Shown: positions 9,356-63,007, counted from the stretch's first letter. The stretch: DNA of 64,000 bases from Bacteroidota bacterium (GCA_040388375.1 JAZKBU010000007.1:3263-67262); one strand, 5' to 3'. Notes: generated by a model from the letters alone, not told the origin. Numbers and translations are program-made.

Positions 9356-9657
9356 ACTTTCTTAAATTCTATTCGTTTATTTAGCCTCCAAACATACAAT
9401 ACATATAGCATGCATTATGTAGTGAAAACACGGTATTTATAGTAGAATATATATTTTCATCTACTTAAAAATAGCCCTGTTTTAAATGTACTTTTATTGC
9501 TGTTTTTTAGGCTAAACTATTATTTGTAAGAAGTTAACACTATCTCGTTATTCATACTTTGTAATGCCGTATGGTAAATAAAAGGAATAAGATTATGTTT
9601 GTTTGCCGACCAAAAGCAGTAATAAATGGCAGCCATACAACAACAAACCATTACAAA

Positions 9658-10788
9658 ATGAAACAACTTATTACCTTACTTGCTATAGCTATATATTCAT
9701 TAAACTTACACGCACAAACCGACAGATTATTAGGTTGCAGGGCAGAGGGGAGTGGAGCCATATTCAGCTCGTTAAACAATGCCAATACCGCCTTTGCCGA
9801 TATTGATACCATACCCAATATGAAGCTGAGTAGTTCAGGCGAAAGTGCTTTTGATGTAAACAATAACCGCTACTTTATTAAAACCAGTTTAGGCATTACC
9901 ATTATGCATTCCGAAACAGGTGCACTGGTAGATACCATTAGTGCAGGAAGCGTTATAAAAGGCATAGAGTTTGACTTAAACACCAATAAAATAGTAGGAT
10001 ATAAAAAAGTAGGCAATGCACAAATATTTACGGCATTAAACTTAACAAGCAGAAGCATTACCACTATTGATACCTTATATGGTGTAAATGTAATAACACC
10101 CGGTGAAAGCACTTTTGACCTTAGTGGCAGCCGCTATTTTACCATAACAAACTTAGGAATAACCATTATAAACGCACAAACAGGAGCCATTATAGAAAGC
10201 ATTGGCAATACAGCCGATATCAATAATTTAGAATATGACTCCGTTGGAAACAGGTTGTTAGGCGTACGCTGGGATGGAGATGTAGAAATACTGACAGCTT
10301 TAAACCTTACCGATAAAACATTTACCGATATAGATACACTGCCCAATGTAAATGCCATTATACAAGGTGAAAGTACTTTTGACAGAAGCAATGGACATTA
10401 TATTATTAAAACCAATTTAGGTATTACCATTATAAATGCCCAAACAGGAGCCATTACCAATCAACCCAACAATTTAGGCGCATTAAAAGGTTTAGAATAT
10501 ATTAATAAATCAATTGCAGTTGGTATACCAAACATAGCAGTTGAAAATACAGTGAATGTTTTCCCTAACCCGTTTAATACCTATACTACCGTTCAGTTAA
10601 ATATACCTGCCAAGCAAGTAACGCTGGCTGTTTACAATGTAAACGGACAACAGGTAAATACCACACATGAAGCATTTGGTAATAGCTTAATTATAAATAA
10701 AGCCGACTTACCTGCCGGCATTTATTTTATGCACTTACTACAAAACGATACAAACAATATAGTAAAAAAACTAATCATAACCGATTGA
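9658..10788 (+). CDS. Secreted repeat protein with C-terminal T9SS sorting domain
   Basis: True start is probably the internal ATG at 9658, which gives the signal peptide MKQLITLLAIAIYSLNLHAQ. At least three internal repeats of about 80 aa (ESxFDxSxxRYF..TxLGITII.AQTGAI....). C-terminus 'VFPNPFNTYTTVQLN...GIYFMHLLQNDTNNIVKKLIITD' is a Por secretion tail. Confidence 0.7.
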   Translation: MKQLITLLAIAIYSLNLHAQTDRLLGCRAEGSGAIFSSLNNANTAFADIDTIPNMKLSSSGESAFDVNNNRYFIKTSLGITIMHSETGALVDTISAGSVIKGIEFDLNTNKIVGYKKVGNAQIFTALNLTSRSITTIDTLYGVNVITPGESTFDLSGSRYFTITNLGITIINAQTGAIIESIGNTADINNLEYDSVGNRLLGVRWDGDVEILTALNLTDKTFTDIDTLPNVNAIIQGESTFDRSNGHYIIKTNLGITIINAQTGAITNQPNNLGALKGLEYINKSIAVGIPNIAVENTVNVFPNPFNTYTTVQLNIPAKQVTLAVYNVNGQQVNTTHEAFGNSLIINKADLPAGIYFMHLLQNDTNNIVKKLIITD

Positions 10789-10810
10789 TAAAAGGATAAA
10801 TACTGATACC

Positions 10811-10898
10811 AAAAGAGTGTTTTCCCTATTTTGTAGAGTAGTTATTACCCTATGAAAAAAGAGTAGTTTTCCTATGCACATAGGGTGTTTTCCCTATT
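10811..10898 (+). repeat. Three copies of the box AAAAGAGTGTTTTCC(C)TAT, plus the palindrome CCTATGCACATAGG, in the upstream region of the 11057 gene
   Basis: Read directly: 10811-10830 aaaagagtgttttccctatt, 10855-10876 aaaaaagagtagttttcctatg, 10881-10898 tagggtgttttccctatt. A fourth copy lies at 24353-24376. Confidence 0.5.
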
Positions 10899-11056
10899 GT
10901 TGTTGACACAAACATTCCGCAAACTTGTACTCCAAAAAATAACTGATTGCACTTATACAAAGTGTAGGCATATTATATTTTGTAAGTATTAACAGTTACG
11001 GACGAAGCTGAAAATCCGCTAGAGAGTAAGCAAAGCAACAACAACAATACATACTC

Positions 11057-12688
11057 ATGTCAACTTTTCAATTTATGCCTCCTGCTAACATACAGGATTT
11101 TGCAAACGATGCAAGCAACCAAGCAGCGTTAATTAGTTTATGGAATAACAACATCAATGGATTTATTCAACAAGGTATGATGGGCAATCCGTGGAATGCC
11201 ACCAATGCACCCGTACCTACTAATTATTTTAATCCGCTTGTAAATAATCCGGATGGGCAAATAATGCAAGCTATTCCTTGGCCTGCTTTTCCGGGTAGGT
11301 TGGCTTATAACTACCCAACACTTACGCAGGTTGAGTTGTTTGCTTTAGCCGATACAGGTTTGGCACCTGCTGATATTAATAACAACCCATGCAATACAGC
11401 TACAGGTAATAACGTTCCTTATTTTCCGTATGGTCCGCGTGGTTGGCAGGATGAGTATTGTGAGTGGGCTGTTACCCGTAACAGCGAAGGTAAAATTACC
11501 CGTATTGATTTTACTTGCGAGAACCCCGAATATTATAATTCAGTTTGGTTAATCAGCCCACAAAAAGTATTAGAGCTATACCAAAACACATTAAACAAAC
11601 CACAAATAGTATTGAACGATTTATGCGTATTAGATAGCGAAAACAATCCGGTTATCAATCCGTCAACAGGGCAGCCATTATACAATCCATTAAACAAATG
11701 GAATATAGGTTCCAACTCAACCGCTAAAACAGGTGGTGCTATGCACTTAACCAGTACACCCAATACCATACAAACCGAAATAGGTTTGGCTTGCGCTTCG
11801 TCAGTACAACGCAATGGTACCTTTACCGATAACAATGCATTGCTTTGTTGCGGGCAATACGGGCAACCACACAGAAACAGCGACCCGACTATAGGCGCCC
11901 AGGTAAATGCTTTTGTAGGCGAGGGTTACTCTGTAACATTGGCCAATCCTCCAGGCTTATATATACAAACACCTGATTTCTCCAGTTACGTGGCGCCTGA
12001 TAATGCAGACTGCTCGGAGTTTTGGACTATAGTACGTGGAGCAGCATCAATGGACGGTATGCCCGGTAATTTTATATTACATGCCGTTTTTGAAGTACCC
12101 TCATCAAAACCATACGTAGTAGGCGATATATTAATTGGCAAGCAAAAAATCAGTTGGGGCTCACAAGTTACCAATACCTTTTTTATGCATATAGTAGCAG
12201 CCGCTTACAGCTCCTCAACACCCCAAAGCTACTCCTGTGTAGGCACACCAACCCCTGACCGAACCTTTGCGCAACCCCTGCAGTTGTTTTACGAAACAGT
12301 ATACAATGCCATGTATCCTTCACCGGTACCTAACCCCGTAAGGCATCCAATAGCCTTGTTAAGTAACAGCACCTATATAGCACCATTTATTAACCAGGGT
12401 ACTACCGCCAATATGGTTATTACGGCAGATACCTGCACCGCAGTAGCCGGCAATGCATCAACCTACCCAACAATTACTTTTGACGGAACAGGTATAACAG
12501 CAACCGTAAACAGTGTAGCGCCTGTTACCTATGCGGTACCCGGTAATTCACAACCCAGTACCTATACCGCTTTGTTTGTTACCGTAACCGTTGCTGCCAA
12601 TGCTACCCAAGGATACAGAAGTTTAAGCGTAGCCAATGTGGGGCAATCCAACCCAATTGCTATGCCAGCTCTGTTAAATGTATTGTAA
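11057..12688 (+). CDS. Hypothetical protein, 543 aa, Asn/Pro/Thr-rich, no signal peptide
   Basis: Long ORF with a clean start, and the same amino-acid composition and 15-bp spacing as the downstream partner. No motif I can assign. Confidence 0.6.
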   Translation: MSTFQFMPPANIQDFANDASNQAALISLWNNNINGFIQQGMMGNPWNATNAPVPTNYFNPLVNNPDGQIMQAIPWPAFPGRLAYNYPTLTQVELFALADTGLAPADINNNPCNTATGNNVPYFPYGPRGWQDEYCEWAVTRNSEGKITRIDFTCENPEYYNSVWLISPQKVLELYQNTLNKPQIVLNDLCVLDSENNPVINPSTGQPLYNPLNKWNIGSNSTAKTGGAMHLTSTPNTIQTEIGLACASSVQRNGTFTDNNALLCCGQYGQPHRNSDPTIGAQVNAFVGEGYSVTLANPPGLYIQTPDFSSYVAPDNADCSEFWTIVRGAASMDGMPGNFILHAVFEVPSSKPYVVGDILIGKQKISWGSQVTNTFFMHIVAAAYSSSTPQSYSCVGTPTPDRTFAQPLQLFYETVYNAMYPSPVPNPVRHPIALLSNSTYIAPFINQGTTANMVITADTCTAVAGNASTYPTITFDGTGITATVNSVAPVTYAVPGNSQPSTYTALFVTVTVAANATQGYRSLSVANVGQSNPIAMPALLNVL

Positions 12689-12702
12689 TCTATTTACAGC
12701 CT

Positions 12703-14238
12703 ATGAAACAAATAAAATTACCCCTGTCAAAACAGCACATTGGTTTAGTTGGCATGTTAACTATATGTATTGGTTTTTGGGCCTTTACCGGGATAGAAAA
12801 AAATGAAAATAGCCAGCCTAACAATTACGATAGTTGTGCGTGCTTTTCGCCCAATAACCAACTATCCAAACTAACCGTATATTTTAACAACCAAGTACCC
12901 GGTGATACCAAGCGGCCATTTACCAATCAGTCGCAAGCCGACTGTTTTGCATGGTCAGAGTTTATAAGCGTAAACTGGCCAACCAAAGGAAACTATTTTG
13001 GCGACCCGAACGATTTTTCACCCGTTGCCTGGGAAACTTATATGCCCCGAAACGTATTGTTTCAGGCCAATGGAAATCCGCCTCCCGCATGGGGTACACT
13101 CGTATCAAACGAGTTTGCAGCCAAGTTTAAAACAGAAAAATTAATATATAATAAATCAACAACCAAAGTGCTTACCTTTTTAGGTACAGGTGTCGATACT
13201 ACTATTGACCTTGTTTTTGGCGACCCGAATCAGGCAGCACCTTTCGGGCATCCCAGTTGGTTAGGTGCACAAAACGGAGTGAACCTGTGGTACGAAATAT
13301 TATTGAATAAAGACTATTATGATTTTGTAGTAAAAACAGGCTATTACAATGCCAAAACACAACACGACTCCGCCAAAGCAGGCATCCCTCTAAACTTTCC
13401 ACAAGGCGTTTATAACGGACAAGTAGGAGCCATTGAAATAAAAGCGGCTTGGATGGAACTAACCGATACCATTTCAGCACACTGGAACCGTTATAAAAAA
13501 TCAAAGGCTTATGTGTTAGACCCCGGTACCCGTAAAATGAGACAAGCCACTGTTGCTTTGGTAGGTATGCACATACTGCATAAAACAACCACTCAACCCA
13601 CATGGGTATGGGCTACGTTTGAGCAAATAGACAATGTGCCCGATAAAACAAGACCAGCACCACCTTATGGTTACAACTTTTACAACAGCAATTGCAAAGC
13701 ACAACAATTAAATGTTCCTGCTTCCGCATTGGGATACGACTCATTGACTTCACCAGTAACCATTCCCTGCAATGCCAATATACCGCCACCTTATTATTTA
13801 AAAGCAGGCATGAAATCCGTGCCTTTACAATTAGAACGTACCAATATAATTAATACCACCAATGCGCAACCAATTAATACCAATATGCGCGATACCATTA
13901 AAAAGTATTACCCAAAATCAGTATGGCAATACTACGAATTGGTAGATGTAATATGGTCGCAGCAGGTACAGCCTAACCCAACAAAACCTATTAATGTACC
14001 CAGAAATTTAAATCCCGGTTATATGAATCCCTTAACCATTGTGGCCAATACCACCATGGAAAGTTATGTGCAAGGTACCAATACCTGTACCAGTTGTCAT
14101 ATATACGGAACCATAGCCGACTACCCGCCAGACTCCGTAAACAATACCATTTTCGGTGATTTTAGCTTTGCCATAGGCGATGCTAAATACCCAAAACCTT
14201 TACAGACAAAATGGAAAACAAGTAAAGGCAAACACTAA
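12703..14238 (+). CDS. Hypothetical membrane-anchored protein, 511 aa, with a single C-terminal CXXCH (possible mono-haem c site)
   Basis: N-terminal TM or signal anchor (IGLVGMLTICIGFWAFTG). 'CTSCH' motif near the C-terminus. Starts 15 bp after the 11057 gene, so probably co-transcribed. Confidence 0.6.
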   Translation: MKQIKLPLSKQHIGLVGMLTICIGFWAFTGIEKNENSQPNNYDSCACFSPNNQLSKLTVYFNNQVPGDTKRPFTNQSQADCFAWSEFISVNWPTKGNYFGDPNDFSPVAWETYMPRNVLFQANGNPPPAWGTLVSNEFAAKFKTEKLIYNKSTTKVLTFLGTGVDTTIDLVFGDPNQAAPFGHPSWLGAQNGVNLWYEILLNKDYYDFVVKTGYYNAKTQHDSAKAGIPLNFPQGVYNGQVGAIEIKAAWMELTDTISAHWNRYKKSKAYVLDPGTRKMRQATVALVGMHILHKTTTQPTWVWATFEQIDNVPDKTRPAPPYGYNFYNSNCKAQQLNVPASALGYDSLTSPVTIPCNANIPPPYYLKAGMKSVPLQLERTNIINTTNAQPINTNMRDTIKKYYPKSVWQYYELVDVIWSQQVQPNPTKPINVPRNLNPGYMNPLTIVANTTMESYVQGTNTCTSCHIYGTIADYPPDSVNNTIFGDFSFAIGDAKYPKPLQTKWKTSKGKH

Positions 14239-14275: not shown

Positions 14276-14308
14276 CCGTAGCCATTAACTATGTGGCTAC
14301 GGGTTTTG
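14276..14308 (+). terminator. Rho-independent terminator hairpin after the 12703-14238 gene
   Basis: ccgtagcca-ttaactatg-tggctacgg: perfect 9-bp stem followed by gtttt. Confidence 0.5.
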
Positions 14309-14332
14309 AATGATAAATAATTTATCAAAGCT

Positions 14333-14362
14333 AGCACACGCTATAAGCGTGTGCTATTCTTT
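14333..14362 (+). terminator. Perfect 10-bp palindrome AGCACACGCT-ATA-AGCGTGTGCT followed by ATTCTTTT (terminator-like, or an operator)
   Basis: Read directly. A degenerate copy with the same downstream 'GTGTGCTATTCTTTAA' lies at 14578-14610. Confidence 0.4.
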
Positions 14363-14374
14363 TAAATATTTTAG

Positions 14375-14610
14375 TAAATTTAAACACCTAATACAAAAAG
14401 GATGCGAGCGCAGGCCAGACAAAAAAGCGGGCCGCGCATCAAGCCTGTGGGGAGAAGCATTTTTTTGTCTAGCGTTTTTGGATACTTTTTTGGCAATGCA
14501 AAAAGTATCGAAGCAAAAAAAGAGAAGAACATTTATTGCAGGCGGGGACGCCTGCAATGGCTATATAAGATATCTGTGCTAACACACACCTATAGCGTGT
14601 GCTATTCTTT
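14375..14610 (+). ncRNA. Candidate structured RNA: a GC-rich intergenic block bounded by two terminator-like hairpins, containing copy 1 of the 88-nt two-hairpin element
   Basis: Local GC is far above the window average (gcgagcgcaggccagac...gcgggccgcgc...gcggggacgcctgc). Several self-complementary stretches. The small ORFs in the track here overlap on both strands. A -7-like TAAATTTA sequence lies just after the first hairpin. Confidence 0.25.
14475..14561 (+). repeat. 88-nt conserved element, copy 1. Hairpin 1 is gatacttttt/aaaaagtatc; hairpin 2 is ttgcaggcg-GGGA-cgcctgcaa
   Basis: About 85% identical by eye to 24156-24242 in the same orientation. In copy 2 the stem changes that are present keep pairing possible. 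Confidence 0.6.
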
Positions 14611-21033: not shown

Positions 21034-21783
21034 TTATTTGCTCAACCAGTTTTTAAAATCGGCAGAGCGGTCAATACTTACTATTAACTCCTCGGTACTG
21101 GCAGGGGTGGTTTCTATTTTTATACGCCCTTTGGTATAAGCAGTCATTTGTTTAATAGCCTGAATTTTTATAATAAACTGTCGGTTTATACGGAAAAAAT
21201 ATTCAGGGTCTAACATCGTTTCCAGTTTATCTAAAGTATAATCAATCAGGTGGGTAGATTCATCGTTGAGTATTACTTTAACATAACGTCCCTCTGATTG
21301 AAAGTAAGCAATATCATCTATACCAATAGAGCGTATTTTACTGCCTGATGTAACCATAAAACGTTTCTGAAAAGTGTCCTGATTTTTCATTTCATGTAGT
21401 AGCTTATCCAATACTTCTTTCGATACAACTTTTGTATCGTGGTACTTATCCAGTGCATTTTTAAGCTCACTTTTATCAAAGGGTTTCAACAAATAATCAA
21501 TGCTGTTTAGCTTAAAAGCTTTCAGGGCATAGTGGTCGTAAGCGGTAGTAAAAATAATAGGTGCTTTTACCACTACGCTGTCAAAAATACTAAAGCTTAT
21601 ATTGTCTGATAAATAAATGTCAAGGAAAACAATATCGGGTGCCAGGTTATTTTTAAACCAGCTAATGGCTTTGCTTGCTGATGGAATAACCGCCAATACT
21701 TCTATGCTGCTATCTATTTCCTGCAATAGCTTTTGTAAATAGTCAGCCGCTATTTGTTCGTCTTCAATAATCAATACTTTCAT
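21034..21783 (-). CDS. LytTR family two-component response regulator
   Basis: Receiver domain (MKVLIIEDE...DIVFLDI) plus C-terminal LytTR DNA-binding domain. Overlaps the upstream kinase gene by 4 nt. Confidence 0.9.
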   Translation of the reverse strand: MKVLIIEDEQIAADYLQKLLQEIDSSIEVLAVIPSASKAISWFKNNLAPDIVFLDIYLSDNISFSIFDSVVVKAPIIFTTAYDHYALKAFKLNSIDYLLKPFDKSELKNALDKYHDTKVVSKEVLDKLLHEMKNQDTFQKRFMVTSGSKIRSIGIDDIAYFQSEGRYVKVILNDESTHLIDYTLDKLETMLDPEYFFRINRQFIIKIQAIKQMTAYTKGRIKIETTPASTEELIVSIDRSADFKNWLSK

Positions 21784-23609
21784 ATAGTGTGGGCTTGTAT
21801 CAATGGAATAATGACTATGTATTTATTATCGCGGGTTTCAAAACGGGGCGTTTCGTTGTGCAAAATAGCAAATCGGGCCATAATATTTTTTATACCAACG
21901 CCCATGCTGTTTGTTTTGTGCGTACGTATTTGCAGGTTGTTTTCTATAATCAGGTAATGCTGTTGGGTGTATATATTTATTTGTAGAGGATGCTCTTCTT
22001 CTATGGTATTGTGTTTAAGCGCATTTTCTATCAACATTTGTAAACAAAAGGGCGGAATAAATAGCGCCATACTTTCTGCCGCTATGTTTTTATGCAATAA
22101 CAAATTATTGCCAAAACGTATTTTTTGCAAATACATATAATCATCTACCAAGTTTAGCTCCTCTTGTAAGGGTATCAGCGAGTCGCCTTTTTGTGAGAGT
22201 ATGTTGCGGTAAAATTTAGAGAATACGGTTACAAATTCGGCAGCCTTTTTTACATCGGTTTGTATAAGCGAGCTTAAAGCATTTAAGCTGTTGAATAAAA
22301 AGTGTGGACTAATCTGGCTGCGTAGTATTTCGTATTGTGCCATTATGTTTTCGGTTTGTAAGCCTACATTTTCGGTGGTTAGGGTTTGGTTGGTTTTCTT
22401 TTTTAACCGGGTATTTCTATACAGTAAAAACACCAGTAAAAACATAGCCCCAAGCAATATTATAAATATGGTTTTTTGCAATAAGGCTTTGCTCAGTTCG
22501 CTTTCCTTTAACTCGTTGGCGGTTTGTAGCAAAGCCAGCTCTTTGTTTTTACGTTCTACGTTAAACTTGGTTTCTGTTTCGGCCAGTTGGGCTACATGCG
22601 ACTGGTTAATTAACGAATCGTTTAAGGCTATAAACCTGTTTTGCCACGCGTAAGCTTCGGCCGGCTTATGGGTTTGAAAACACAGCTCCCCCATATTGCG
22701 GTAGTAGTTGGAAACTACCGAGCGTGCGCCTATTTGTAAGGCCAATTGGTAGCCGCTGTCCAGGTAGTGTTTGGCTTCCTTATAATTACCTGTGCCTATT
22801 AAAACACTGGCCAGTGTGGTGGCGGTGCTGGCACAGCTTAGTTTGTTATTGGATTTTTTCTGGTATGCAATGGCCTGTTTTAAATAGTCAATGGCTTTGT
22901 CGTTTATGCGTAACTCCGCATAGGCTATACCTATACTGCAGTATAATACAGATTGATTAACAAAAGTGCTGTCCTTGTGGGCAGAAGGAAGCGCTTTTAA
23001 ATACAAGGCAATGGCTTCTTTGTATTTTCCTTCCGAGGTATAAATATTGCCTATATTATTGGCTATGGATACATATTTTTTATAATCGCTGGCTTCTAGT
23101 TTCGATAGTGCTTGTAGGTAAAAACCCAATGCTTTCTTTTTGTTGTTTAAATAAAAATAGTCGTTGCCAATATTAACCAGGGCAGATATATATCCTTTTT
23201 CATATTGAAGCGAATCGTACAGGCGCAAAGCATGTAAATGCAAATCAACGGCCTCGTTGTATAAACCTTCTGTGCGCAGCATATTGGCGTTTAAATCCAT
23301 GGCCATAGCCAAACCCGGAGCGTAATGTATTTGGGTGCTTAGTGTAGTTATTTCGTGTGTTAAAACTTTACCCGCTTCTCTGTCAGATAAAACAACGCCA
23401 AAGGCCAAATCGCGCAGCGCTTTTACCTTGTTGCTGTCGTTAGGCATGTGCTTAATAGCCTTTTGCAGGCTATCTATATTGTGGTTTTGCGCATGTATGG
23501 GGTTGCTAAAACAGACCCAAACAATGGTTAGTATCCATAAGGCTTTAAACATATGGCAACTTAAATATTTCAGCGCTAAAAAAGTATTATGCTGTGCTGA
23601 AAGTGTCAT
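21780..23609 (-). CDS. Sensor histidine kinase, LytS/YehU type (His_kinase domain), with periplasmic TPR repeats
   Basis: Signal or TM segment, TPR-like repeats, one TM (IFIILLGAMFLLVFLLY), then 'SPHFLFNSLNALSSLI' His_kinase motif and an ATPase domain. The internal Met about 20 codons in (MFKALWILTIVWVCF) may be the true start. Confidence 0.8.
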   Translation of the reverse strand: MTLSAQHNTFLALKYLSCHMFKALWILTIVWVCFSNPIHAQNHNIDSLQKAIKHMPNDSNKVKALRDLAFGVVLSDREAGKVLTHEITTLSTQIHYAPGLAMAMDLNANMLRTEGLYNEAVDLHLHALRLYDSLQYEKGYISALVNIGNDYFYLNNKKKALGFYLQALSKLEASDYKKYVSIANNIGNIYTSEGKYKEAIALYLKALPSAHKDSTFVNQSVLYCSIGIAYAELRINDKAIDYLKQAIAYQKKSNNKLSCASTATTLASVLIGTGNYKEAKHYLDSGYQLALQIGARSVVSNYYRNMGELCFQTHKPAEAYAWQNRFIALNDSLINQSHVAQLAETETKFNVERKNKELALLQTANELKESELSKALLQKTIFIILLGAMFLLVFLLYRNTRLKKKTNQTLTTENVGLQTENIMAQYEILRSQISPHFLFNSLNALSSLIQTDVKKAAEFVTVFSKFYRNILSQKGDSLIPLQEELNLVDDYMYLQKIRFGNNLLLHKNIAAESMALFIPPFCLQMLIENALKHNTIEEEHPLQINIYTQQHYLIIENNLQIRTHKTNSMGVGIKNIMARFAILHNETPRFETRDNKYIVIIPLIQAHTI

Positions 23610-23747
23610 TTATTGACATGAAGGAGCAGTATACTATTTTAAAAATGACACATTTAAACGGTATGAAAAAGGGCTTAGTAGTTTACGAGTTAATAAGAGA
23701 TGGGTTGATTGGCTGCCTACTTAAAACCCGGACAGTATGAAAAAAAT

Positions 23748-24052
23748 GTTTTTGGTACATTCCTGAAACTGGGACTATATAAAAAATATATTTTTATTAC
23801 GTTCCTCAAATTCGGAATGTATATAAAATAAATTTTTACTACGTTCCTGAAACTAGGACTGTATATAAAATATATTTTTATTATGTTCCTGAAACTCGGA
23901 ATATATATAAAATAAATTTTTACTACGTTCCTGAAATGAGGAATGCATATAAAATAAATTTTTATTATGTTCCTGAAATGAGGACTGTATATAAAATAAA
24001 TTTTTACTATGTTCCTAAAACTAGGACTATGTGTAAAATAAATTTTTAGTAC
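23748..24052 (+). repeat. Tandem array of seven 42-bp direct repeats (plus a degenerate eighth), consensus TTTTTAYTAYGTTCCTGAAAYNRGGAMTRTATATAAAATAAA
   Basis: The GTTCCT core recurs at 23759, 23801, 23843, 23885, 23927, 23969 and 24011, exactly 42 bp apart. Units alternate between two subtypes (ATTAY...CGGAAT and ACTAC...AGGACT). No unique spacers. Confidence 0.9.
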
Positions 24053-24155
24053 TTATTTATAACTAACATATCATATAAAAAGCAGAAATACCTTCAGCGT
24101 GCGTACAGAAGTATTTTGCCCTTATTGTGTCTTCAGACCAATAAGTAGCCTGGCA

Positions 24156-24242
24156 TTTTTGGATACTATTTTGCTCATGCAAAAAGTATTGAAGCAAGAA
24201 AAGGGAAGAATATTAATTGCATGCGGGGACGCCTGCAATGGC
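24156..24242 (+). repeat. 88-nt conserved two-hairpin element, copy 2
   Basis: Aligns with 14475-14561: ...tttttggatact..tttg...atgcaaaaagtatYgaagcaaRaaaRgRgaagaaYattWattgcaKgcggggacgcctgcaatggc. Confidence 0.6.
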
Positions 24243-24352
24243 GTAATTACAATCCGTAAAGTGCTTCGTTAACTATATGAACTGTAAGATATAAAAATGT
24301 AATCCTACCTATATACCAATATTTATATTTTTTCGTTTTACATATTAGTTTT

Positions 24353-24376
24353 AAAAAAAAGAGTGTTTTTCCTACT
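24353..24376 (+). repeat. Fourth copy of the AAAAGAGTGTTTTTCC box
   Basis: aaaaaaaagagtgtttttcctac, followed by a partial second copy aaaaaagggtattt. Confidence 0.45.
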
Positions 24377-24672
24377 AAAAAAGGGTATTTATACTATTGG
24401 ATAGTAATAAATACATATTTACTATTGCAGTCAATATATATATAAGTAATATAACAAATATAGATAAAAAGCCCATAGGTGCGCTAACACCTACAGGCCA
24501 TGTAAATAAATAAAACGTTGTCCTATGCTGATAAAACTACATCCTATTTAGCTACGAAAGTAGCCAAATAACAAAACATAGCAATACTGATTTGCTGATA
24601 CACTAAAAATGCCATAACCCCAAGGCTAGCTTTAAATAGTGAGGTAAATAACAAACTATTAAACAAACAATA

Positions 24673-38868: not shown

Positions 38869-39852
38869 TTACGATTCCTTCATAGCCATTTTATTGTATT
38901 TATTCCGGTACTCAATAGGAGTAAGCCCTGTTATCTTTTTAAATATAGTTCTAAACGATTTCGTGTCAGTATAACCTACATCAAACATCACCTCATTTAT
39001 ATTTTTTCGGCTGTTTTCAAAGCTACGTTTAGCCGCTTCAATTTTTATACGTTGTATGTATTCTAAAACCGAATTATTGGTAGCCAGTTTAAAACGCCTT
39101 TCAAAACTACGTCTGCCCACAGCTATAATAGTAGCCAAATCATCTACGCTTAGTTTTTCGTGAATATTGTTCTCTATATAAGTTTGTATTTTTTTGATAT
39201 CATCATCTTTATGATTCTTTTGGCCCTTAAACATGGCAAAAGTGGTCTGACTATCCCTGTCAATATCAATAGCAAAATATTTAGAGGCCAGTATAGCCGT
39301 TTCCCTATCCGTATATTTCTCCACCAGGTGCAATAATAAATTCCAGTACGAGTTAGCGCCACCACTTGAGTACAAACGGTTTTCTTCCGTAATAATACTA
39401 CCATCAATAACATCAACCTCAGGAAACATTTCCCTGAACTCATTTTGAAAACCCCAGTGTGTTGAACATTTTTTGCCATTTAACAAACCCGTAGAAGCCA
39501 GTAAAAAAGCACCTACACATAACGAGGCTACCTCCGCACCATTTTCATATTGTTTATTAATCCACGGTAATAAATCCTTGTTTTGGTTAATAGCTGATTG
39601 CATATCGCCAAACAGTGCAGGAATAATAACCAAATCACTTGGCGCATCATCATGTATTTGCGTATCAGTATGTATGGAGTACATGCCATTATTTATTTTT
39701 ACCTCCTTGGTACCGCCCACCAATTGTACTTGGAACAAAGGGCTTTTACCCGATGCCATTAAAAACTGGTTGACAGCCGAAAACAAATATTGAGGATCGG
39801 CAACGGCTTGCATAACCGATGATTCAGGAACTAATATGCTTACATGTTTCAT
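38869..39852 (-). CDS. GlxA-type transcriptional regulator: DJ-1/PfpI domain fused to an AraC HTH
   Basis: N-terminal class I glutamine amidotransferase-like fold (nucleophile-elbow Cys within LCVGAF). C-terminal AraC signature (TGLTPIEYRNKYN). Confidence 0.85.
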   Translation of the reverse strand: MKHVSILVPESSVMQAVADPQYLFSAVNQFLMASGKSPLFQVQLVGGTKEVKINNGMYSIHTDTQIHDDAPSDLVIIPALFGDMQSAINQNKDLLPWINKQYENGAEVASLCVGAFLLASTGLLNGKKCSTHWGFQNEFREMFPEVDVIDGSIITEENRLYSSGGANSYWNLLLHLVEKYTDRETAILASKYFAIDIDRDSQTTFAMFKGQKNHKDDDIKKIQTYIENNIHEKLSVDDLATIIAVGRRSFERRFKLATNNSVLEYIQRIKIEAAKRSFENSRKNINEVMFDVGYTDTKSFRTIFKKITGLTPIEYRNKYNKMAMKES

Positions 39853-40001
39853 GTTGTTTTATTGAAGTGATTGCGAATATAATAAAATAAATTGTCGCAA
39901 AACACCCTTTTGTTGCCGTTTATACACTGCTTTTATTTTGTAGAGTTATTACATATTTGTAGTGTTCAAAATCAAATAATATTCATTTAAAAAATATAGA
40001 C

Positions 40002-55183: not shown

Positions 55184-58100
55184 ATGACAAATATTAATAC
55201 TGAATTATCCCTATTTGATAAGGCCTTAAAGGAGACATTATTTAGTAGTTTTGAACATCCATTTGTAATCATTAATGAATATTACGAAATACAGAGTATA
55301 CACGGAAATATAGAGTTGTTTTTACCCCCTACCTATTACAACAATAATTTATTAGAAATAGTTAATAGTAGTTTACAAACAGAAGTAAGCTCCATTACTT
55401 CACGCGCTATCAAAGAGCAAAAAGATACTAAAAGCGCTATTAAAAAAATAAACATAACAGGTAGTACTTATTATATACAATTATCAGTTAAAGTTTTATT
55501 GTTAAATGGCGTCAAGACAAAATTATTTATGGTAATTTTTGAAGAGGTTTTTTTTGATGATTTAGAACTTGACACCGTTAAGAACTCATTAGATTTAATC
55601 GTTAATCCACATTCAGTAGCCGAAAGACATATTACCGAAGAAAAATACAAAGCGTTTATTGAAAACTCAATGAGTGCCTTTTTATTGACCAAACCTGATG
55701 GAACAATTTTAGAAGTAAATAATGCGGCTATTGAAATATTTGGCTATTCAGAAGAAGAGCTTAAACAAAATGCCTGTCAAAATATAATTGACCATGACGA
55801 CCCACAGTTTTCAAAATTACTGGAAGCCCAATTTAAAAAAGGAAGAATAAAAGGAGAAGCCATTGGCATTAGAAAAAACGGAGAATATTTTCCTGTGGAG
55901 TTTTCTTCAGTTGTATTCAAAGATTTTGTTACAGGTGAAGATAGAATTAGTAAAGTAATAACAGATATTTCTGAAATTAGAAAAACAGAAAGAATGTTGG
56001 AAGAAAGTAGTAAAGTGGGGAGGATAGGGGGATGGGAATTGGATTTGTTCCACAATACACTTTATTGGAGTGAGGTAACAAAAGAAATTCATGAAGTACC
56101 TAGTGATTTTGTTCCCAATTTAGAAACAGCAGTCAATTTTTATAAAGAAGGATATAATAGAAAAACGATTAATAGGTTATTGAAAGAGGCCGTAGACAAA
56201 GGCTCTTCTTTTGATATTGAATTGAAAATTGTTACCATTAAGCAAAGAGAATGTTGGATTAGGGTAAAAGGAGAAGCGGAATTTAGAAATGGAAAGTGTT
56301 CCCGTTTATTTGGAATTTTTCAGGATATAGATAAACAAAAAATAATACAAGAGAAATTAGAAATTAGCCAGCAAGAATACAAATCACTATACGAACAGAA
56401 TCCGGCAGCCGTTTTTTCCGTTAATTTAGAGGGTGAGTTTATTAGCGCTAATGATGTTTTTGCACAAAAAGCAGATTGTACCAAAGAAGAAATTTTAAAT
56501 AGTAATTTCAATAAATTTATCCATCAGGATGATTTAGCCCGTGTAAGTACCTATTTTGATGATGCTAAAAAGGGCGCGGTTAGCGAAGCTGAAATAAGGA
56601 TAATCAATGCGAAGCAAAAAGAAATACTCATAGCCTTAATAGTTTTACCTATTATAGTTAACAATAAAATTACGGGAGTATATGGAATTGCTAACGATAT
56701 AACGGCTGATAAATTAATTCGTCAATCTATTGAAAAAGCTAAAAACGATTTAACTAAAATTATGTCCGCTTCTCAGGATATTATTTGCACCATTGATAGA
56801 GAAGGGAAATTTGTTTTATTAAATAAAGCGGCAGAACATATACTTGGTTTTCCAATTGATTATTTAAAAGGAAAATCATACAACGAGTTTGTTTATGAGG
56901 CTGATATAGCAGACACTGAAAAATCAATGTTTTTGATTATGAATGGTCAGTTGGCTTCTAATTTCGAAAACAGGTATATCAGGATAGACGGAACAATGGT
57001 TCCATTATCGTGGTCAGCCAGATGGGACTCAACTGACCAGTTAATGTATTGTGTTGCACGTGATGTAACCCAAAAGAAAAAGGCCGAGGAGGAAATAATA
57101 AAAAGCAACGAGCGCTTTGAATATGTTACACAAGCTACGTTTGATGCCATTTGGGATTGGGACATAGTGAATGATTTAATATATTGGGGAAGTGGTTTTA
57201 AAACATTATTCGGTTATTCCAATATCAATGAATTTGTAAAAGGAAATGAGTGGAAGAACAGAATTTACAAAGACGATATAAAAAATGTAATACAATCATT
57301 AGATACTTTTTTACAAGGAAGAGAGTTAAACTGGACCTATGAATATAAGTATTTAAAAGCCGATGGAACTTATGCTTACGTATTAGATAAAGCCATTGCA
57401 GTGAGAGATGCAGCAGGTAATGCCATTCGTATGATTGGTGCTATGCAGGATTTAACCAAACAAAAACAAGAAGAGCATAGGCTTAAATTATTAGAATCAG
57501 TAATTATTAATGCCAAAGACGGTGTAATAATACTAGAGGACGAATTCAGTGCAAATGCAAGTAAAAAAATTATATATGTAAATGATGCACTTTGTAAAAT
57601 AACTGGCTATTCAAAAGAAGAACTGATAGGATGTAGTCCCAACATATTTCAGGGTTTTAATACCGATAAAAAAGAAATAGAGCGTGTAAAAAAAGCAATG
57701 AATGATTGGCAACCAGTAGAAGCCGAAGTAATTAATTATAGAAAAAATGGTGAAGAGTTCTGGATGAATTTCTCCATTGTACCTATAGCAAATGAAACAG
57801 GTAAATATACACATTGGATTGCAATAGAAAGAGATGTAACAGCAAGGAAAACATCAGAGGAAGAGAAAGAACATTTACTAAAAGAGTTAACCCAAAATAA
57901 CAAAGAACTTAAACAGTTTTCTTATATTACTTCCCATAACATGAGGGCTCCATTAACCAATTTATTGGCTATTTTCGATATTTTAGATTTATCTAAAATT
58001 ACAGATATGGAGACAAAAGTTTTATTAGATGCTATGAAAACATCAACGTATCACTTAAATGAAACTTTAAATGATTTGATAAAAATCCTCATTATAAAAG

Positions 58101-58567
58101 AAAATACAAACCAGGATGTAGAGGAAATATATTTTAGTGATTCAGTACGGGCAGTAACCAAATCAATAGATTCACTATTGAAAAATGCCAAAGCAAGTAT
58201 AAAAAGTAACTTTAGTAAAGCAGAAAAAGTAAACTTTAACAAGAGTTATTTAGAAAGTATATTTTTAAATTTAATTACCAATTCAATTAAATATGCTCAC
58301 CCGGATAGAAGGACCCAAATGAGCATTACTACCACTACTATCAATAATACCATAGAACTTGTTTTTACAGACAACGGATTAGGCTTTGATAATGAAAAAG
58401 TGAAGGGTAAAATTTTTGGATTGTATCAAAAATTCCATAGCCATCCCGACAGTAAAGGGATTGGTTTATATTTGGTATATTCGCAGGTGACTTCTTTGGG
58501 CGGGAATATTAAAGTAAGCAGTAAAGAAAATGAAGGCACCACTTTTACAATAACATTTTTAAATTAA
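55184..58567 (+). CDS. Multi-PAS/PAC sensor histidine kinase (paralog 1)
   Basis: At least five PAS/PAC modules, then a HisKA-like 'ELKQFSYITSHNMRAPLTNLLAIF' and a HATPase_c (DNGLGFDNEKVKGKIFGLYQKFHSHPDSKGIGLYLV). Confidence 0.85.
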   Translation: MTNINTELSLFDKALKETLFSSFEHPFVIINEYYEIQSIHGNIELFLPPTYYNNNLLEIVNSSLQTEVSSITSRAIKEQKDTKSAIKKINITGSTYYIQLSVKVLLLNGVKTKLFMVIFEEVFFDDLELDTVKNSLDLIVNPHSVAERHITEEKYKAFIENSMSAFLLTKPDGTILEVNNAAIEIFGYSEEELKQNACQNIIDHDDPQFSKLLEAQFKKGRIKGEAIGIRKNGEYFPVEFSSVVFKDFVTGEDRISKVITDISEIRKTERMLEESSKVGRIGGWELDLFHNTLYWSEVTKEIHEVPSDFVPNLETAVNFYKEGYNRKTINRLLKEAVDKGSSFDIELKIVTIKQRECWIRVKGEAEFRNGKCSRLFGIFQDIDKQKIIQEKLEISQQEYKSLYEQNPAAVFSVNLEGEFISANDVFAQKADCTKEEILNSNFNKFIHQDDLARVSTYFDDAKKGAVSEAEIRIINAKQKEILIALIVLPIIVNNKITGVYGIANDITADKLIRQSIEKAKNDLTKIMSASQDIICTIDREGKFVLLNKAAEHILGFPIDYLKGKSYNEFVYEADIADTEKSMFLIMNGQLASNFENRYIRIDGTMVPLSWSARWDSTDQLMYCVARDVTQKKKAEEEIIKSNERFEYVTQATFDAIWDWDIVNDLIYWGSGFKTLFGYSNINEFVKGNEWKNRIYKDDIKNVIQSLDTFLQGRELNWTYEYKYLKADGTYAYVLDKAIAVRDAAGNAIRMIGAMQDLTKQKQEEHRLKLLESVIINAKDGVIILEDEFSANASKKIIYVNDALCKITGYSKEELIGCSPNIFQGFNTDKKEIERVKKAMNDWQPVEAEVINYRKNGEEFWMNFSIVPIANETGKYTHWIAIERDVTARKTSEEEKEHLLKELTQNNKELKQFSYITSHNMRAPLTNLLAIFDILDLSKITDMETKVLLDAMKTSTYHLNETLNDLIKILIIKENTNQDVEEIYFSDSVRAVTKSIDSLLKNAKASIKSNFSKAEKVNFNKSYLESIFLNLITNSIKYAHPDRRTQMSITTTTINNTIELVFTDNGLGFDNEKVKGKIFGLYQKFHSHPDSKGIGLYLVYSQVTSLGGNIKVSSKENEGTTFTITFLN

Positions 58568-59185: not shown

Positions 59186-62100
59186 TTGATAATAAAATTG
59201 AATAGCTCAATTAACTATAATACTTTAAAAACTATATTAGATAATGCAAATCAGGCATTATTTGTAACCAATGCAAAAGGTAATATTTGTAATGCCAATA
59301 ATACAGCCGGCAAAATATTCGGATATAGTAATGAAGAGTTACTGAATTATTCATTCAATGATTTAGTTAAAAGTACTGCTGGAAGCCTTGATTTTACTAG
59401 CTTTATTAAACAACAAATAAGCCCCTTAACAAAATTTATTGGTATTCATAAAGAAGGGTTTAGCTTCCCTGTGTTTGTTGCTAATACTTCCTTCACAGAT
59501 GAACAAAATGGCGAGCAGTATTATTACATCACATTCAATAACGGTAATCAAACACAAGCAATAAACTCAGCAGATACATTAGAAAAAAACGAAGCCAAAT
59601 TAAAGGCCATACTTGAAAATTTAGCAGATGTAATAACGGTTGTAAATAGTGATTTAGAAGTTGTGTTTCAAAGTTCCATCAAAAACATATTAGGCTATGA
59701 GGAAAGTGAATTAATTGGACAAAATATTTTAAATTATATTCATAAAGACGACTTAGCGCTTATAAAACAAGAATTTGAAAAAGGTATTGAAAAGGGAGGA
59801 ATAAGCAATTTAATTGAATTTAAGTTTTTAAGTAAAAGTGGCAATTATATATATTTTGAGGCCAGTGGAAATAACCAATTGAATAATCCCGCTGTAAATG
59901 GTATTATAATTAATTCAAGGGATATAACCACAAGGAAACAGATTGAAAAAGAAGTAGTATTATCAAGATTTACTTTAAATAATATAGAAAGTTCCATATT
60001 ATGGAATATGCCTGATGGTACTTTTTTAGACTATAATGACTATGCTTATAAAATGCTAGGTTATACTAAAGAAGAGTTTAAAAACATATCAGTTGCTAAT
60101 ATTGACTCCACTTACACACCAGAAGCTTGGGCAGAGCATTGGGAACATTTAAGAAAAGAAAAACACCTAAGTTTTGAAAGCAAACATATTCGTAAAGACG
60201 GTACTTTAATTGATGTTGAAATTAATGCCAATTATATTCAATACGGAGACTTTGAATTAAATTGTGCTTTGGTTAACGATATAACCAACCGTAAAAAAGT
60301 AGAAGATGCACTTCAGGCATCAGAAAGCCAGATTCGCTCTGTTTTTGATAATACAGAAATAGGTTTTATTTTATTTTCAGCCGATTTAAGAATAGTTTCA
60401 TTTAACGCTACTGCTGAAAAATATACCATTGAAGAGCACGAAAAACAGTTAGTTAATGATGCGTATTATTTAGATTATTTTCCTTTAGATTCAAGAGCGA
60501 ATATTTTAAAGCATGCTCAAAATGTGCTGGCAGGTAATAAAATGGATTTTGATTTACTTGGAAAAAAAAATAAAGCCAATCAGGAGAATTGGTTTAATGT
60601 TAAGTTTTCGCCAGTTACAAATAAAAACAATGAGGTTGTTGGTTTATTAATGGCAATGGAAAATATTAGTGAACGTAAAAAAATTGAAAAAGATTTAAAA
60701 ATCAGCAACGAACGATTTGAATATGTTACGCAAGCTACATTTGATGCTATTTGGGATTGGGATTTACTAACCAACCATTTGTTTTGGGGTAAAGGTTACC
60801 ATACTTTGTTTGGTTATAATGTAGTTGAAAGTAATAATTACATTAATGAATCAAACTATTTTATTCATGAAGAAGATAGAGAACGCATATTTGATAGCTT
60901 GCAACAAGCAATAGATAAAGGTGAAAATAACTGGAATGCTCAATATCGATACTTAAAATCAAATGGCGAATATGCCTTTGTTGAAGATAAAGGTGTAATA
61001 GTGAGGAATGAAAATGGCAAAGCCATTAGAATGATAGGAGCTATGCAGGATATAAGCTCGCAGAAACAAAAAGAACAACAGTTGAAATTGTATGAATCCG
61101 TTATTACAAACTCAACAGATAGTGTTTTAATAACAGGAGCCAATGCAACAGAAGAAGGTTATGAAATAGTTTTTGTAAACGAAGCTTTTACCAAAATGAC
61201 AGGTTATACCAAAAAAGAAGTAATTGGTAAAACACCCAAATTATTACAAGGACCTAAAACAAATAAAAAATCATTAGACCGCTTAGACAGAGCTTTAAAA
61301 AACTTTAAACCTTGCGAAATTGAAGTAATCAATTACAAAAAAAACGGGGAAGAGTTTTGGGTTAATTTAGCTATTGTTCCCATTGGCGATATGAATGGTT
61401 CATATACCAACTGGGTTTCTATTCAACGCGATACAACAGAGCGCAATAAAAATATAATTGAAAAAGAAGCCATATTTGAAATAGTTAAGTCAATTAATGG
61501 CAGTAATAATCTAGAAAACTCTTTAGGAGAAGTAATAGAAAAAGTTTGCAGATATTTAGATTTTCAATATGGTGAAGTTTGGTCGCTGAATATTGATGAA
61601 AATAAAATGGTTTTTAGGGCAGATTGGAGTGCCAATAAAAAAATATTTTTAAAGCGGAGCGATGCTAGCATAAGTACCATAGAAAAAGGAGAAGGTTTAC
61701 CCGGTACAGCCTGGTTAAACAAAGAAAGAATATACATAAAGGATTTACAGAACTCTATTTTTGTAAGAAAAGAAAGTGCTAAAAAGGCAGGTTTAGTAAG
61801 TGGAATGGCCTTGCCGATTTATTTCAATAATGAGGTAGTAGCCGTGTTTAATTTATTTTCAAACAAGCCATTTACCAAAGACCAGCTATATGCAGATTTA
61901 CTTAATAAACTAACAAGCCAAATAGGAGCTGATATTCAAAAAAACAGGAAAGAATTAGAACTGAACCAGTTTTTTACTTTATCACCCGATTTGCTTTCCA
62001 TATCAGGTATGGATGGCTATTTAAAAAAAATAAATCCGGCTTTTACCAACATTTTAGGTTATACAGAGCAGGAGTTATTGGCTGTACCACTCATAGAATT

Positions 62101-63007
62101 TGTCCATGCAGATGATAAGCATAAAACACTATTTACGGCTGAAAACTTTTTGGATAATAATTCAAACATTTATATTGAAAACAGATTTATAGCTAAAAAT
62201 GGTGAAATAAAATGGCTGGCTTGGACATGTACTCCACTGGTTAAAGAAGGGCTGATTTTTTCAGCTACCAAAGATATAACAGAAAAGAAAAAAATGGATG
62301 ATGAGCGTAAAAAGCTTATCAATGAATTAACGAGCAATAACAAGGAGTTAAAACAGTTTTCATATATTACCTCACATAACATGAGAGCGCCATTAACTAA
62401 TTTATTGGCTATTTTTCAAATGTTAGATACTTCAAAAATTGTTGATGAAGAAACATTGACTTTAATAGAAGCAATGAGGCAGTCAACCCATAATTTAAAT
62501 GAGACACTTAATGATTTAATTAAAATTTTAATTATAAAAGAAAATACCAACCAAAAAGTATTTGACCTTGAATTTAAAGTAGTGCTTGATTATGTACGTG
62601 AAAGTATCAGTTCTATTATTAATAATTCAAATGCAGTTATTAATGTTAATTTTTCTAAAGCCCCAATAGTTAGGTTTAATAAAGGTTATTTGGAAAGTAT
62701 ATTTTTAAATTTAATAACCAATTCAATTAAATACGCTCACACAACACGAAAACCTACTATACACATTGAAACCAGAGTAGGCAATGAGTTTATTGAATTG
62801 ATTTTTAAAGATAATGGGCTTGGTTTTAATGAAGAAAAAGTAAAAGGTAAAATATTTGGGTTGTACCAAAAATTCCATAATCATCCGGATAGTAAAGGGA
62901 TAGGTCTGTATTTGGTTTACTCTCAGGTAACAGCATTAGGTGGCGAAATATCAGTTAATAGTATAGAGGGCGAGGGTACTACGTTCGTAATAAAGTTTAA
63001 AAAATAA
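59186..63007 (+). CDS. Multi-PAS/GAF sensor histidine kinase (paralog 2)
   Basis: PAS repeats, a GAF-like region (about residues 760-920), and a C-terminal kinase core nearly identical to paralog 1 (ELKQFSYITSHNMRAPLTNLLAIF; GLGFNEEKVKGKIFGLYQKFHNHPDSKGIGLYLV). Confidence 0.85.
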   Translation: MIIKLNSSINYNTLKTILDNANQALFVTNAKGNICNANNTAGKIFGYSNEELLNYSFNDLVKSTAGSLDFTSFIKQQISPLTKFIGIHKEGFSFPVFVANTSFTDEQNGEQYYYITFNNGNQTQAINSADTLEKNEAKLKAILENLADVITVVNSDLEVVFQSSIKNILGYEESELIGQNILNYIHKDDLALIKQEFEKGIEKGGISNLIEFKFLSKSGNYIYFEASGNNQLNNPAVNGIIINSRDITTRKQIEKEVVLSRFTLNNIESSILWNMPDGTFLDYNDYAYKMLGYTKEEFKNISVANIDSTYTPEAWAEHWEHLRKEKHLSFESKHIRKDGTLIDVEINANYIQYGDFELNCALVNDITNRKKVEDALQASESQIRSVFDNTEIGFILFSADLRIVSFNATAEKYTIEEHEKQLVNDAYYLDYFPLDSRANILKHAQNVLAGNKMDFDLLGKKNKANQENWFNVKFSPVTNKNNEVVGLLMAMENISERKKIEKDLKISNERFEYVTQATFDAIWDWDLLTNHLFWGKGYHTLFGYNVVESNNYINESNYFIHEEDRERIFDSLQQAIDKGENNWNAQYRYLKSNGEYAFVEDKGVIVRNENGKAIRMIGAMQDISSQKQKEQQLKLYESVITNSTDSVLITGANATEEGYEIVFVNEAFTKMTGYTKKEVIGKTPKLLQGPKTNKKSLDRLDRALKNFKPCEIEVINYKKNGEEFWVNLAIVPIGDMNGSYTNWVSIQRDTTERNKNIIEKEAIFEIVKSINGSNNLENSLGEVIEKVCRYLDFQYGEVWSLNIDENKMVFRADWSANKKIFLKRSDASISTIEKGEGLPGTAWLNKERIYIKDLQNSIFVRKESAKKAGLVSGMALPIYFNNEVVAVFNLFSNKPFTKDQLYADLLNKLTSQIGADIQKNRKELELNQFFTLSPDLLSISGMDGYLKKINPAFTNILGYTEQELLAVPLIEFVHADDKHKTLFTAENFLDNNSNIYIENRFIAKNGEIKWLAWTCTPLVKEGLIFSATKDITEKKKMDDERKKLINELTSNNKELKQFSYITSHNMRAPLTNLLAIFQMLDTSKIVDEETLTLIEAMRQSTHNLNETLNDLIKILIIKENTNQKVFDLEFKVVLDYVRESISSIINNSNAVINVNFSKAPIVRFNKGYLESIFLNLITNSIKYAHTTRKPTIHIETRVGNEFIELIFKDNGLGFNEEKVKGKIFGLYQKFHNHPDSKGIGLYLVYSQVTALGGEISVNSIEGEGTTFVIKFKK

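Follow-up and report, generated by a model that had tools for sequence, protein, structure and literature searches.

Strict orientation, same-face spacing and a site that abuts the −35 element are activator hallmarks, found at LytTR, AraC/XylS and SARP promoters. LytTR-regulated promoters (AgrA P2/P3, ComE, PlnC/D, BlpR, YpdB and BtsR are examples) carry imperfect direct repeats just upstream of −35, whose centres are about 21-22 bp apart and which are separated by an A/T-rich spacer; they are orientation-dependent, and their frequent targets are toxins, bacteriocins and secreted factors. AraC/XylS sites, such as araI1-I2, the XylS sites at Pm and the marbox of MarA, SoxS and Rob, are asymmetric, bipartite, 15-20 bp long and strictly oriented; direct repeats recur every 21 bp with the proximal one overlapping or abutting −35, and single sites serve the monomeric members. 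In SARP and OmpR-PhoB sites, head-to-tail repeats with a period of 11 or 22 bp line one helical face and either take the place of −35 or adjoin it; SARPs are actinobacterial. The sigma-A promoter of the Bacteroidota reportedly has the form TTG-N20-TAnnTTTG (Bayley et al. 2000; Chen et al. 2007). For environmental members of the phylum (Chitinophagia- and Flavobacteriia-like lineages), very few transcription-factor regulons have been defined.

The window analysed here, a whole stretch of 64,000 nucleotides from a Bacteroidota metagenome-assembled genome (locus tag V4538_11635), carries two arrays of a 15-bp box directly upstream of predicted promoters. We conclude that the box array is a real, conserved cis-regulatory array of a large family, undescribed in Rfam or in the literature searched. 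In kind, it would be an upstream activator site.

Box arrays in the window and their close relatives

The first array occupies a gap of 268 bp between the gene at 9571-10788 and the operon that starts at 11057. Four boxes (10815-10897) stand there head to tail, all on the plus strand and each preceded by an A-tract; their consensus is GRGTRTTTNCCCTAT, and their 3′ ends are spaced 24, 22 and 22 bp apart. The features of this region are:

9571-10788: upstream neighbour, a T9SS-tailed protein (Por_Secre_tail)
10815-10829, plus strand: box 1, GAGTGTTTTCCCTAT, exact consensus, PWM score 24.0 bits, preceded by the A-tract 10811-10814
10836-10853, plus strand: box 2, GAGTAGTTATTACCCTAT, a variant longer by 3 nt, recovered as a gapped regular-expression match
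10861-10875, plus strand: box 3, GAGTAGTTTTCCTAT, 15.8 bits, preceded by AAAAAA
10883-10897, plus strand: box 4, promoter-proximal, GGGTGTTTTCCCTAT, 24.3 bits
10897-10927, plus strand: predicted core promoter, with TTG at 10897-10899 (−33-like), a 20-nt spacer and CAAACTTG at 10920-10927
10998-11032, plus strand: DUF805b-type leader hairpin and AGAGTAAGCA, in the 5′-UTR of the 11057 gene (Rfam RF02914)
11057-12688, plus strand: DUF8225 protein (PF26676, precomputed annotation), first gene of the operon
12703-14238, plus strand: 511-residue partner, second gene of the operon, with an N-terminal transmembrane segment and a C-terminal CTSCH

The initial annotation had seen three copies here, at 10811, 10855 and 10881. 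Sites are present as it stated, but the boxes number four, and the 3′ end of box 3 lies 22 bp from those of both box 2 and box 4. It had also placed a box at 24353-24376; the motif does recur there, but the site is a pair (24361-24397) with the same 22-bp period, its second box weaker than the first:

24361-24375, plus strand: box A, GAGTGTTTTTCCTAC, 20.1 bits, preceded by an A-tract
24383-24397, plus strand: box B, GGGTATTTATACTAT, 16.5 bits, 22 bp past box A
24397-24427, plus strand: predicted core promoter, with TTG at 24397-24399, N20 and TACTATTG at 24420-24427, which matches TAnnTTTG in 7 of 8 positions

Both arrays are intergenic and run in the direction of the gene that follows; with two in a 64-kb window, such arrays accompany a minority of promoters. 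The leader of the operon at 24673 (24428-24672, about 245 nt) is 94% identical to its counterpart in a close relative (L109), above the conservation of the flanking genes. It contains several hairpins, for instance GCCCATAGGTGCGCTAACACCTACAGGC and TAGCTACGAAAGTAGC, and may be a structured leader or a small RNA.

Scans of the window set these sites apart from chance. The PWM, which was built from related genomes, gave six matches at ≥15 bits compared to 0.43 expected from dinucleotide-preserving shuffles, and three compared to 0.03 at ≥18 bits; five of the six fall in the two arrays, and the sixth (61223, minus strand) lies within a gene. The 15-mer core GAGTGTTTTCCCTAT with up to two mismatches was found five times (0.17 expected from dinucleotide shuffles), two of these being coding look-alikes at 10554 and 11634 (minus strand), and a gapped pattern drawn from the 10.8-kb copies matched only those copies and 24361-24375, all on the plus strand. 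The 15-mer originally reported, AAAAGAGTGTTTTCC, showed no enrichment in the window when three mismatches were allowed (5 matches, 4.7 expected): the box signal resides in the core and its clustering, not in AAAAGAGTGTTTTCC as such. The look-alike at 10554-10568, GAATGTTTTCCCTAA, codes for NVFPNP, the start of a T9SS C-terminal sorting domain, so that T9SS tails are expected to give false positives in scans for the box motif.

Both loci are conserved in CAYTWI01, a genome mislabelled 'Bifidobacterium' that was found through the genome scan described below; it is 84-90% identical to the window at the DNA level, carries the two orthologous loci on one contig and served as a proxy for the source genome in genome-wide terms. 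Its 10.8-kb orthologue (L009) keeps all four boxes, with box 2 reading GAGTAGTTATTACCCCAT, and in its 24-kb orthologue (L109) the pair is likewise present, box A having the perfect form GAGTGTTTTCCCTAC and box B reading GAGTATTTATACTAT. A 2-kb metagenome contig (L002) encodes a DUF8225 protein 79% identical to that of the window, the sole near relative in the protein collection. Upstream of it, the proximal box and one distal box are kept and the sequence between them has diverged. Box 4 is thus conserved in both L009 and L002 and box 1 in L009, and box 2 corresponds in the alignment to GGGGTTTTCCCTAC, the strongest of the distal boxes in L002. The promoter region itself, CATTGT..AAACATT..GCAA..TTGTAC around 10898-10930, is conserved in both as well. 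No array was found upstream of a distant DUF8225 homologue (60% identity, L003). Two palindromes reported in the array, ATAGGG-N6-CCCTAT and CCTATGCACATAGG, do exist, but they follow from the GGG...CCC make-up of the box and are no separate features; in each, one pair is lost in L009 without a compensating change, and neither can be recognised in L002.

The partner protein encoded at 12703-14238 had no Pfam match. A distant paralogue of it (23% identity, E = 2e-9), which keeps the C-terminal CxxCH, is encoded behind a box pair of its own at another locus of a close relative (L040).

The hairpin in the 5′-UTR of the 11057 gene belongs to a different layer of the promoter region. It scored 32.1 bits with RF02914, below the gathering threshold of 35.6, and the orthologous L002 site scored 44.3 bits, above it. 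A metagenome scan for this leader returned at least 122 sites, and the pattern ACGGAG.AAGCCGAAAATCCG, 3-6 nt and AGAGTAGGC precedes the ATG by a near-constant 30-38 nt in more than 100 unrelated genes (L120-L239). Among the matches listed, one weak box was the only box upstream of a leader and no downstream gene was a DUF8225 orthologue; other box arrays have no DUF805b leader. The leader is therefore independent of the boxes, and the promoter region is modular, being made of boxes, core promoter and a generic leader. The DUF805b-type element (RF02914) lies in the 5′-UTR of the gene behind the 10.8-kb array and yet is a separate module, which looks like a generic 5′-UTR or translation element of the Bacteroidota, not tied to DUF805 genes. 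Over the whole window, Rfam at the gathering threshold and a tRNA scan returned nothing. A trpB-motif match, obtained at the E-value threshold in the two gaps, was weak and on the wrong strand, and we took it as chance. Elsewhere in the window, the neighbouring genes at 55184-58567 and 59186-63007 (1127 and 1273 residues) are large paralogues that share blocks of 72-80% DNA identity at an offset of 4440 bp.

The box family across genomes

We scanned one genome from each of 185,579 species for the exact 19-mer AAAAGRGTGTTTTYCCTAY, which yielded 119 matches in 110 stretches. About 40 of these were lone copies scattered over unrelated phyla, roughly as many as chance would give; calculated from base composition, about 10^-3 matches are expected per 5-Mb AT-rich genome. 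Cultured species with matches include Flavobacterium terrae DSM 18829, F. ardleyense KCTC 52644 and Galbibacter marinus. Exact matches in the fetched loci were concentrated in four metagenome-assembled genomes of Bacteroidota:

CALRXU02: 27 matches
CAYTWI01: 11 matches
RDYC01: 6 matches
JANMIV01: 4 matches

A family PWM derived from the scan loci (G-R-G-T-R-T-T-T-N-C-C-C-T-A-T) recovered 68 arrays from 39 loci and the window together, ranging from single boxes to three or four. Of 56 pairs of neighbouring boxes, 43 had a spacing of exactly 22 bp and 49 one of 20-22 bp, and the spacer was a nearly invariant A6-7 tract. Coding sequence makes up about 83% of the total, yet 61 of the 68 arrays were intergenic, and every one of the seven genic arrays was a single weak box. 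Where the neighbour could be scored, the arrays were oriented toward the next gene in 56 of 58 cases.

The distance to the promoter is equally regular. In most cases TG comes directly after the last box, and box and flank together read ...CCCTATTG. A TAnnTTTG element started 22-23 nt past the last box in 27 arrays and in none of the mirror control; in seven arrays it started 44-45 nt past the last called box, a weak proximal box having gone uncalled there. The two elements of the window, CAAACTTG and TACTATTG, each start 22 nt past the last box, the former being a weak, TAnnTTTG-like −7. The arrays stop at −33 and never cover the −7 element or the predicted start site. Set beside the sigma-A consensus, as the initial annotation had proposed, the box is a separate element that adjoins −33/−7, not an ordinary promoter consensus.

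Single or double boxes of a variant, GGGTGTTTTTCCTAT, occur in Flavobacteriia, among them Flavobacterium, Lutibacter and Polaribacter. The distance from box to −7 is the same at about 8-10 of 30 such sites, and the box module is therefore older than the lineage of the window. Searches of Rfam, both at the gathering threshold over the whole window and at the E-value threshold over both gaps, revealed no family covering the boxes, and we found no description of the motif in the full-text literature.

One genome, CALRXU02, presents the module in a different way. A nearly identical promoter cassette of about 135 nt, composed of a hairpin (a half-box and its complement), CCTTTT, two boxes and the extended −7 TTGGGnTAnGTTTG, precedes unrelated genes at 10 or more loci (L004, L006, L015, L080, L084, L089, L097 and others), and conservation stops at its edges. 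Promoter modules can thus disperse as units in these genomes, and part of the recurrence of the box could reflect promoter copying and not selection for a common regulator.

The genes that follow the arrays are heterogeneous. They encode N6 and C5 DNA methylases, AIPR, SIR2-like, HD-CE and Abi proteins, a TNT toxin domain, LRR proteins, a LodA-like lysine oxidase, a phage-tail-collar protein, T9SS cargo and many proteins that carry a signal peptide or are of unknown function. No function shared among them emerged from Pfam, which is unusual for a classical regulon and counts against an activator regulon. Upstream of the arrays lie unrelated housekeeping genes (those of citrate synthase, DAHP synthase and signal peptidase II, for instance), and this suggests a trans-acting rather than a local factor. 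The boxes had been suggested to form a regulon signature, and this holds as far as the arrays are oriented, stand before many genes and keep a fixed distance to the promoter, but not for the coherence of the genes as judged by Pfam; on balance they look like the signature of a large regulon. The motif would bring under common control many genes of unknown function (DUF8225 and the CxxCH partner among them) together with defence and toxin genes. With its 22-bp unit, its fixed position, dozens of targets per genome and its presence in cultured Flavobacteriia, it also offers a testable handle for isolating the regulator.

A probable activator array and its alternatives

The layout of these promoters, namely direct repeats on one face, strict orientation, a proximal site at −33 and weak −7 elements in the window, argues for activation, and we consider it probable that the box array is an upstream activator-binding array abutting the −33 element of a sigma-A promoter. 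The unit, about 22 bp long, consists of the 15-bp box GRGT-RTTTN-CCCTAT with an A6-7 tract in front of it. Its head-to-tail period equals two helical turns, which places all boxes on one face of the double helix. Since the last box merges with the −33 TTG, the proximal box would occupy about −37 to −51 from the predicted start and the others would lie at about −59, −81 and −105. The invariant blocks GRGT and CCCTAT have their centres about 10 bp, or about one helical turn, apart, and the 22-bp unit contains no internal 11-bp repeat. A sequence-specific activator could bind cooperatively with one protomer per box, each protomer reading two adjacent major grooves. The promoter-proximal protomer would then contact RNA polymerase, through sigma region 4 or the alpha C-terminal domain, and thereby switch on weak −7 promoters, here CAAACTTG and TACTATTG, while the phased A-tracts probably contribute a fixed bend. 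A single factor acting in this way would control the DUF8225 operon (11057), the lipoprotein operon (24673) and dozens of promoters in the lineage. It should be said that the −7 elements of the window match TAnnTTTG only in part, a point that counts against activation.

Such a factor might have a wider role, as a class-spanning master regulator of accessory genes whose promoters come as a plug-in module placed before horizontally acquired or lineage-specific genes, among them those for restriction-modification, Abi and SIR2 defence, toxins, LodA-type oxidases and secreted proteins. The module would comprise an upstream hairpin, two to four phased boxes and a sigma-A core, copied in some genomes as the cassette of about 135 nt. 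We regard this extension as speculative and rather unlikely; if true, it would represent a positive counterpart of xenogeneic silencing.

The CALRXU02 cassette could equally be taken to mean that a strong, self-contained promoter module, upstream hairpin included, has been copied before newly acquired genes without any dedicated regulator, the boxes and A-tracts serving as an UP-like or bent-DNA element of a sigma-A core. Besides the sharp edges of that cassette, the phasing of A-tracts every 22 bp and the heterogeneous, often accessory genes downstream fit such copying. However, what the window, its relatives and the Flavobacteriia have in common is the boxes and their spacing alone, in differing surroundings, as is the case for binding sites, and the invariant G-G-T...TTT..CCC-TA shows more specificity than a generic UP or bend element would account for. 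Copying without a regulator is therefore unlikely.

Less probable again is a repressor or silencer that would coat the region above the promoter and hold accessory, defence and toxin genes off until relieved. Several targets are potentially costly (TNT toxin, Abi, SIR2 and the methylases of restriction-modification), and in two metagenome-assembled genomes many array promoters have a good −7, for instance TAGGTTTG, and may not need activation. Yet a protein bound to boxes that end at −33 would never lie over the −7 element or start site; the orientation, same-face spacing and proximal site at −35 resemble, by analogy, the activator hallmarks named at the outset; and the −7 elements of the window itself are weak.

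We also weighed an element acting in RNA, in which the hairpin ATAGGGTGTTTTCCCTAT followed by TGTTGTTG would terminate the transcript of 9571-10788, or CCCUAU/AUAGGG would form an attenuator, and found it very improbable. The terminator-like scan does report 10880-10897; this weak hairpin is the sole result of the sigma-70 and terminator scan, which is uninformative for Bacteroidota. The fold of 10789-10920 has a z-score of −1.96, which is not compelling, and the stem has six pairs, only three of them G-C, and a poor tail. Moreover, the pairing loses one pair uncompensated in L009 and is absent from L002, as described above for the palindromes, no Rfam family covers the boxes, and the direct repeats keep their fixed promoter distance below quite different upstream genes.

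The initial annotation had further proposed that the box and an 88-nt element flank the 11057-14238 cassette, meet again at 24 kb and might be the ends of a mobilised or duplicated segment. The two copies of this element in the window (14469-14561 and 24150-24242) are 87% identical, and it occurs in the relative past the DUF8225 operon (L009, 5854-5913 and 6696-6750) and past the 24673 operon (L109, 7566-7638); it is an independent dispersed intergenic repeat. A segment of about 600 bp (23708-24309), which includes the element and a 42-bp tandem array, is absent from L109, where the boxes are kept, and the meeting of box and 88-nt element at 24 kb is therefore lineage-specific and accidental, as is the supposed link around the cassette. 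That the two motifs are cassette borders can be practically dismissed: both do lie near both loci of the window, but the PWM scan disclosed no inverted or second box on the 3′ side of the cassette, with no minus-strand box near 14.2-14.7 kb, and the element belongs to a segment that a box-keeping relative lacks. Transposon or MITE ends were likewise rejected, as there is no inverted copy and the relative has both arrays and the cassette in full, only the 88-nt/42-bp segment being variable.

Several structures were observed around these repeats. The element (88/93 nt) contains two hairpins, GGATACTTTTT..AAAAAGTATC and TTGCAGGCGGGGACGCCTGCAA, and a similar-looking element is found at about 5400-5480 of L078. 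A GC-rich stretch (14381-14470), repeated in L009 too, precedes the first copy, and this GC-rich/88-nt block is bracketed by two copies, 76% identical, of a 49-nt hairpin with a T-run (AGCACACGC..GCGTGTGCTATTCTTT; 14314-14362 and 14562-14610). A separate terminator-like hairpin lies at 14277-14305. The 42-bp tandem array (23682-24093) has 7-8 units, each made of a TTCCT-N6-AGGAA-type palindrome and an A/T-rich half.

Candidate regulators and comparison with known systems

Judged by its geometry and by analogy, the regulator of an upstream activator array of this kind is most likely either a LytTR-type response regulator or an AraC/XylS-type protein, which we rate about equal. A LytTR gene lies near the 24-kb array:

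21034-21783, minus strand: LytTR response regulator (Pfam), candidate regulator of the boxes
21780-23609, minus strand: TPR-His_kinase (Pfam), divergent from the 24-kb array

In the CAYTWI01 relative, this kinase/LytTR pair is only 226 bp from the array. LytTR genes beside arrays numbered two in 277 kb (window/L109 and L078), which is about chance for LytTR-rich Bacteroidota, and the two were not orthologous. A tblastn search with LytTR, kinase and AraC domains showed no enrichment in the 277 kb of array-bearing loci. No minus-strand PWM match of ≥8 bits lies between 22436 and 24360, so that no box faces the kinase operon, autoregulation being frequent but not universal in LytTR systems, and four homologues of the window regulator with 57-61% identity (L114-L118) have no boxes nearby; their genomes may lack the box regulon altogether. 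With no enrichment, no autoregulatory box and boxless homologue loci, these tests did not support the neighbouring LytTR protein as the regulator, and it is a candidate only. In three more distant genomes (L114, 4158-5195; L115, 2275-3291; L116, 6864-7886), a T9SS-tailed gene of about 340 residues directly follows the TPR-kinase/LytTR operon, an arrangement absent from the window.

No regulator recurred among the array-upstream genes by Pfam. An AraC HTH occurs near one array (L097) as a weak match (E = 0.001), and upstream of the sole AraC-type gene of the window (38869-39852) there is a half-box at best. This minus-strand half-box, AAAAGGGTGTTTTGC (39897-39911), lies about 45 nt upstream of the gene, which is of AraC/DJ-1-PfpI type, and has neither the CCCTAT block nor a TAnnTTTG at +22.

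Plasmid or phage iterons, which form one or a few repeat clusters per replicon beside a replication initiator gene or origin, were rejected as a model: there is no rep gene nearby, and dozens of arrays per genome stand each before a promoter. Compared with the sigma-A core promoter of the Bacteroidota (−33 TTTG / −7 TAnnTTTG), the arrays lie directly upstream and the box is an extra element. SARP and OmpR-PhoB sites differ from them in having 6-7-bp units every 11 bp, whereas the unit here is 22 bp long and undivided. The likeness to AraC/XylS sites lies in GAGT ... CCCTAT, one turn apart, which may be compared with TAGC-N7-TCCATA or TGCA-N6-GGNTA; unlike in those systems, no AraC-type gene recurs near the arrays. 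LytTR promoters depart from the arrays in their shorter repeats (9-12 bp, compared to a box of 15 bp), and the arrays also differ in their near-invariant A-tract spacer and in the occurrence of three to four or single boxes. They are alike, however, in their 22-bp direct repeats, in the proximal repeat at −33 and in the common orientation of repeats and gene.
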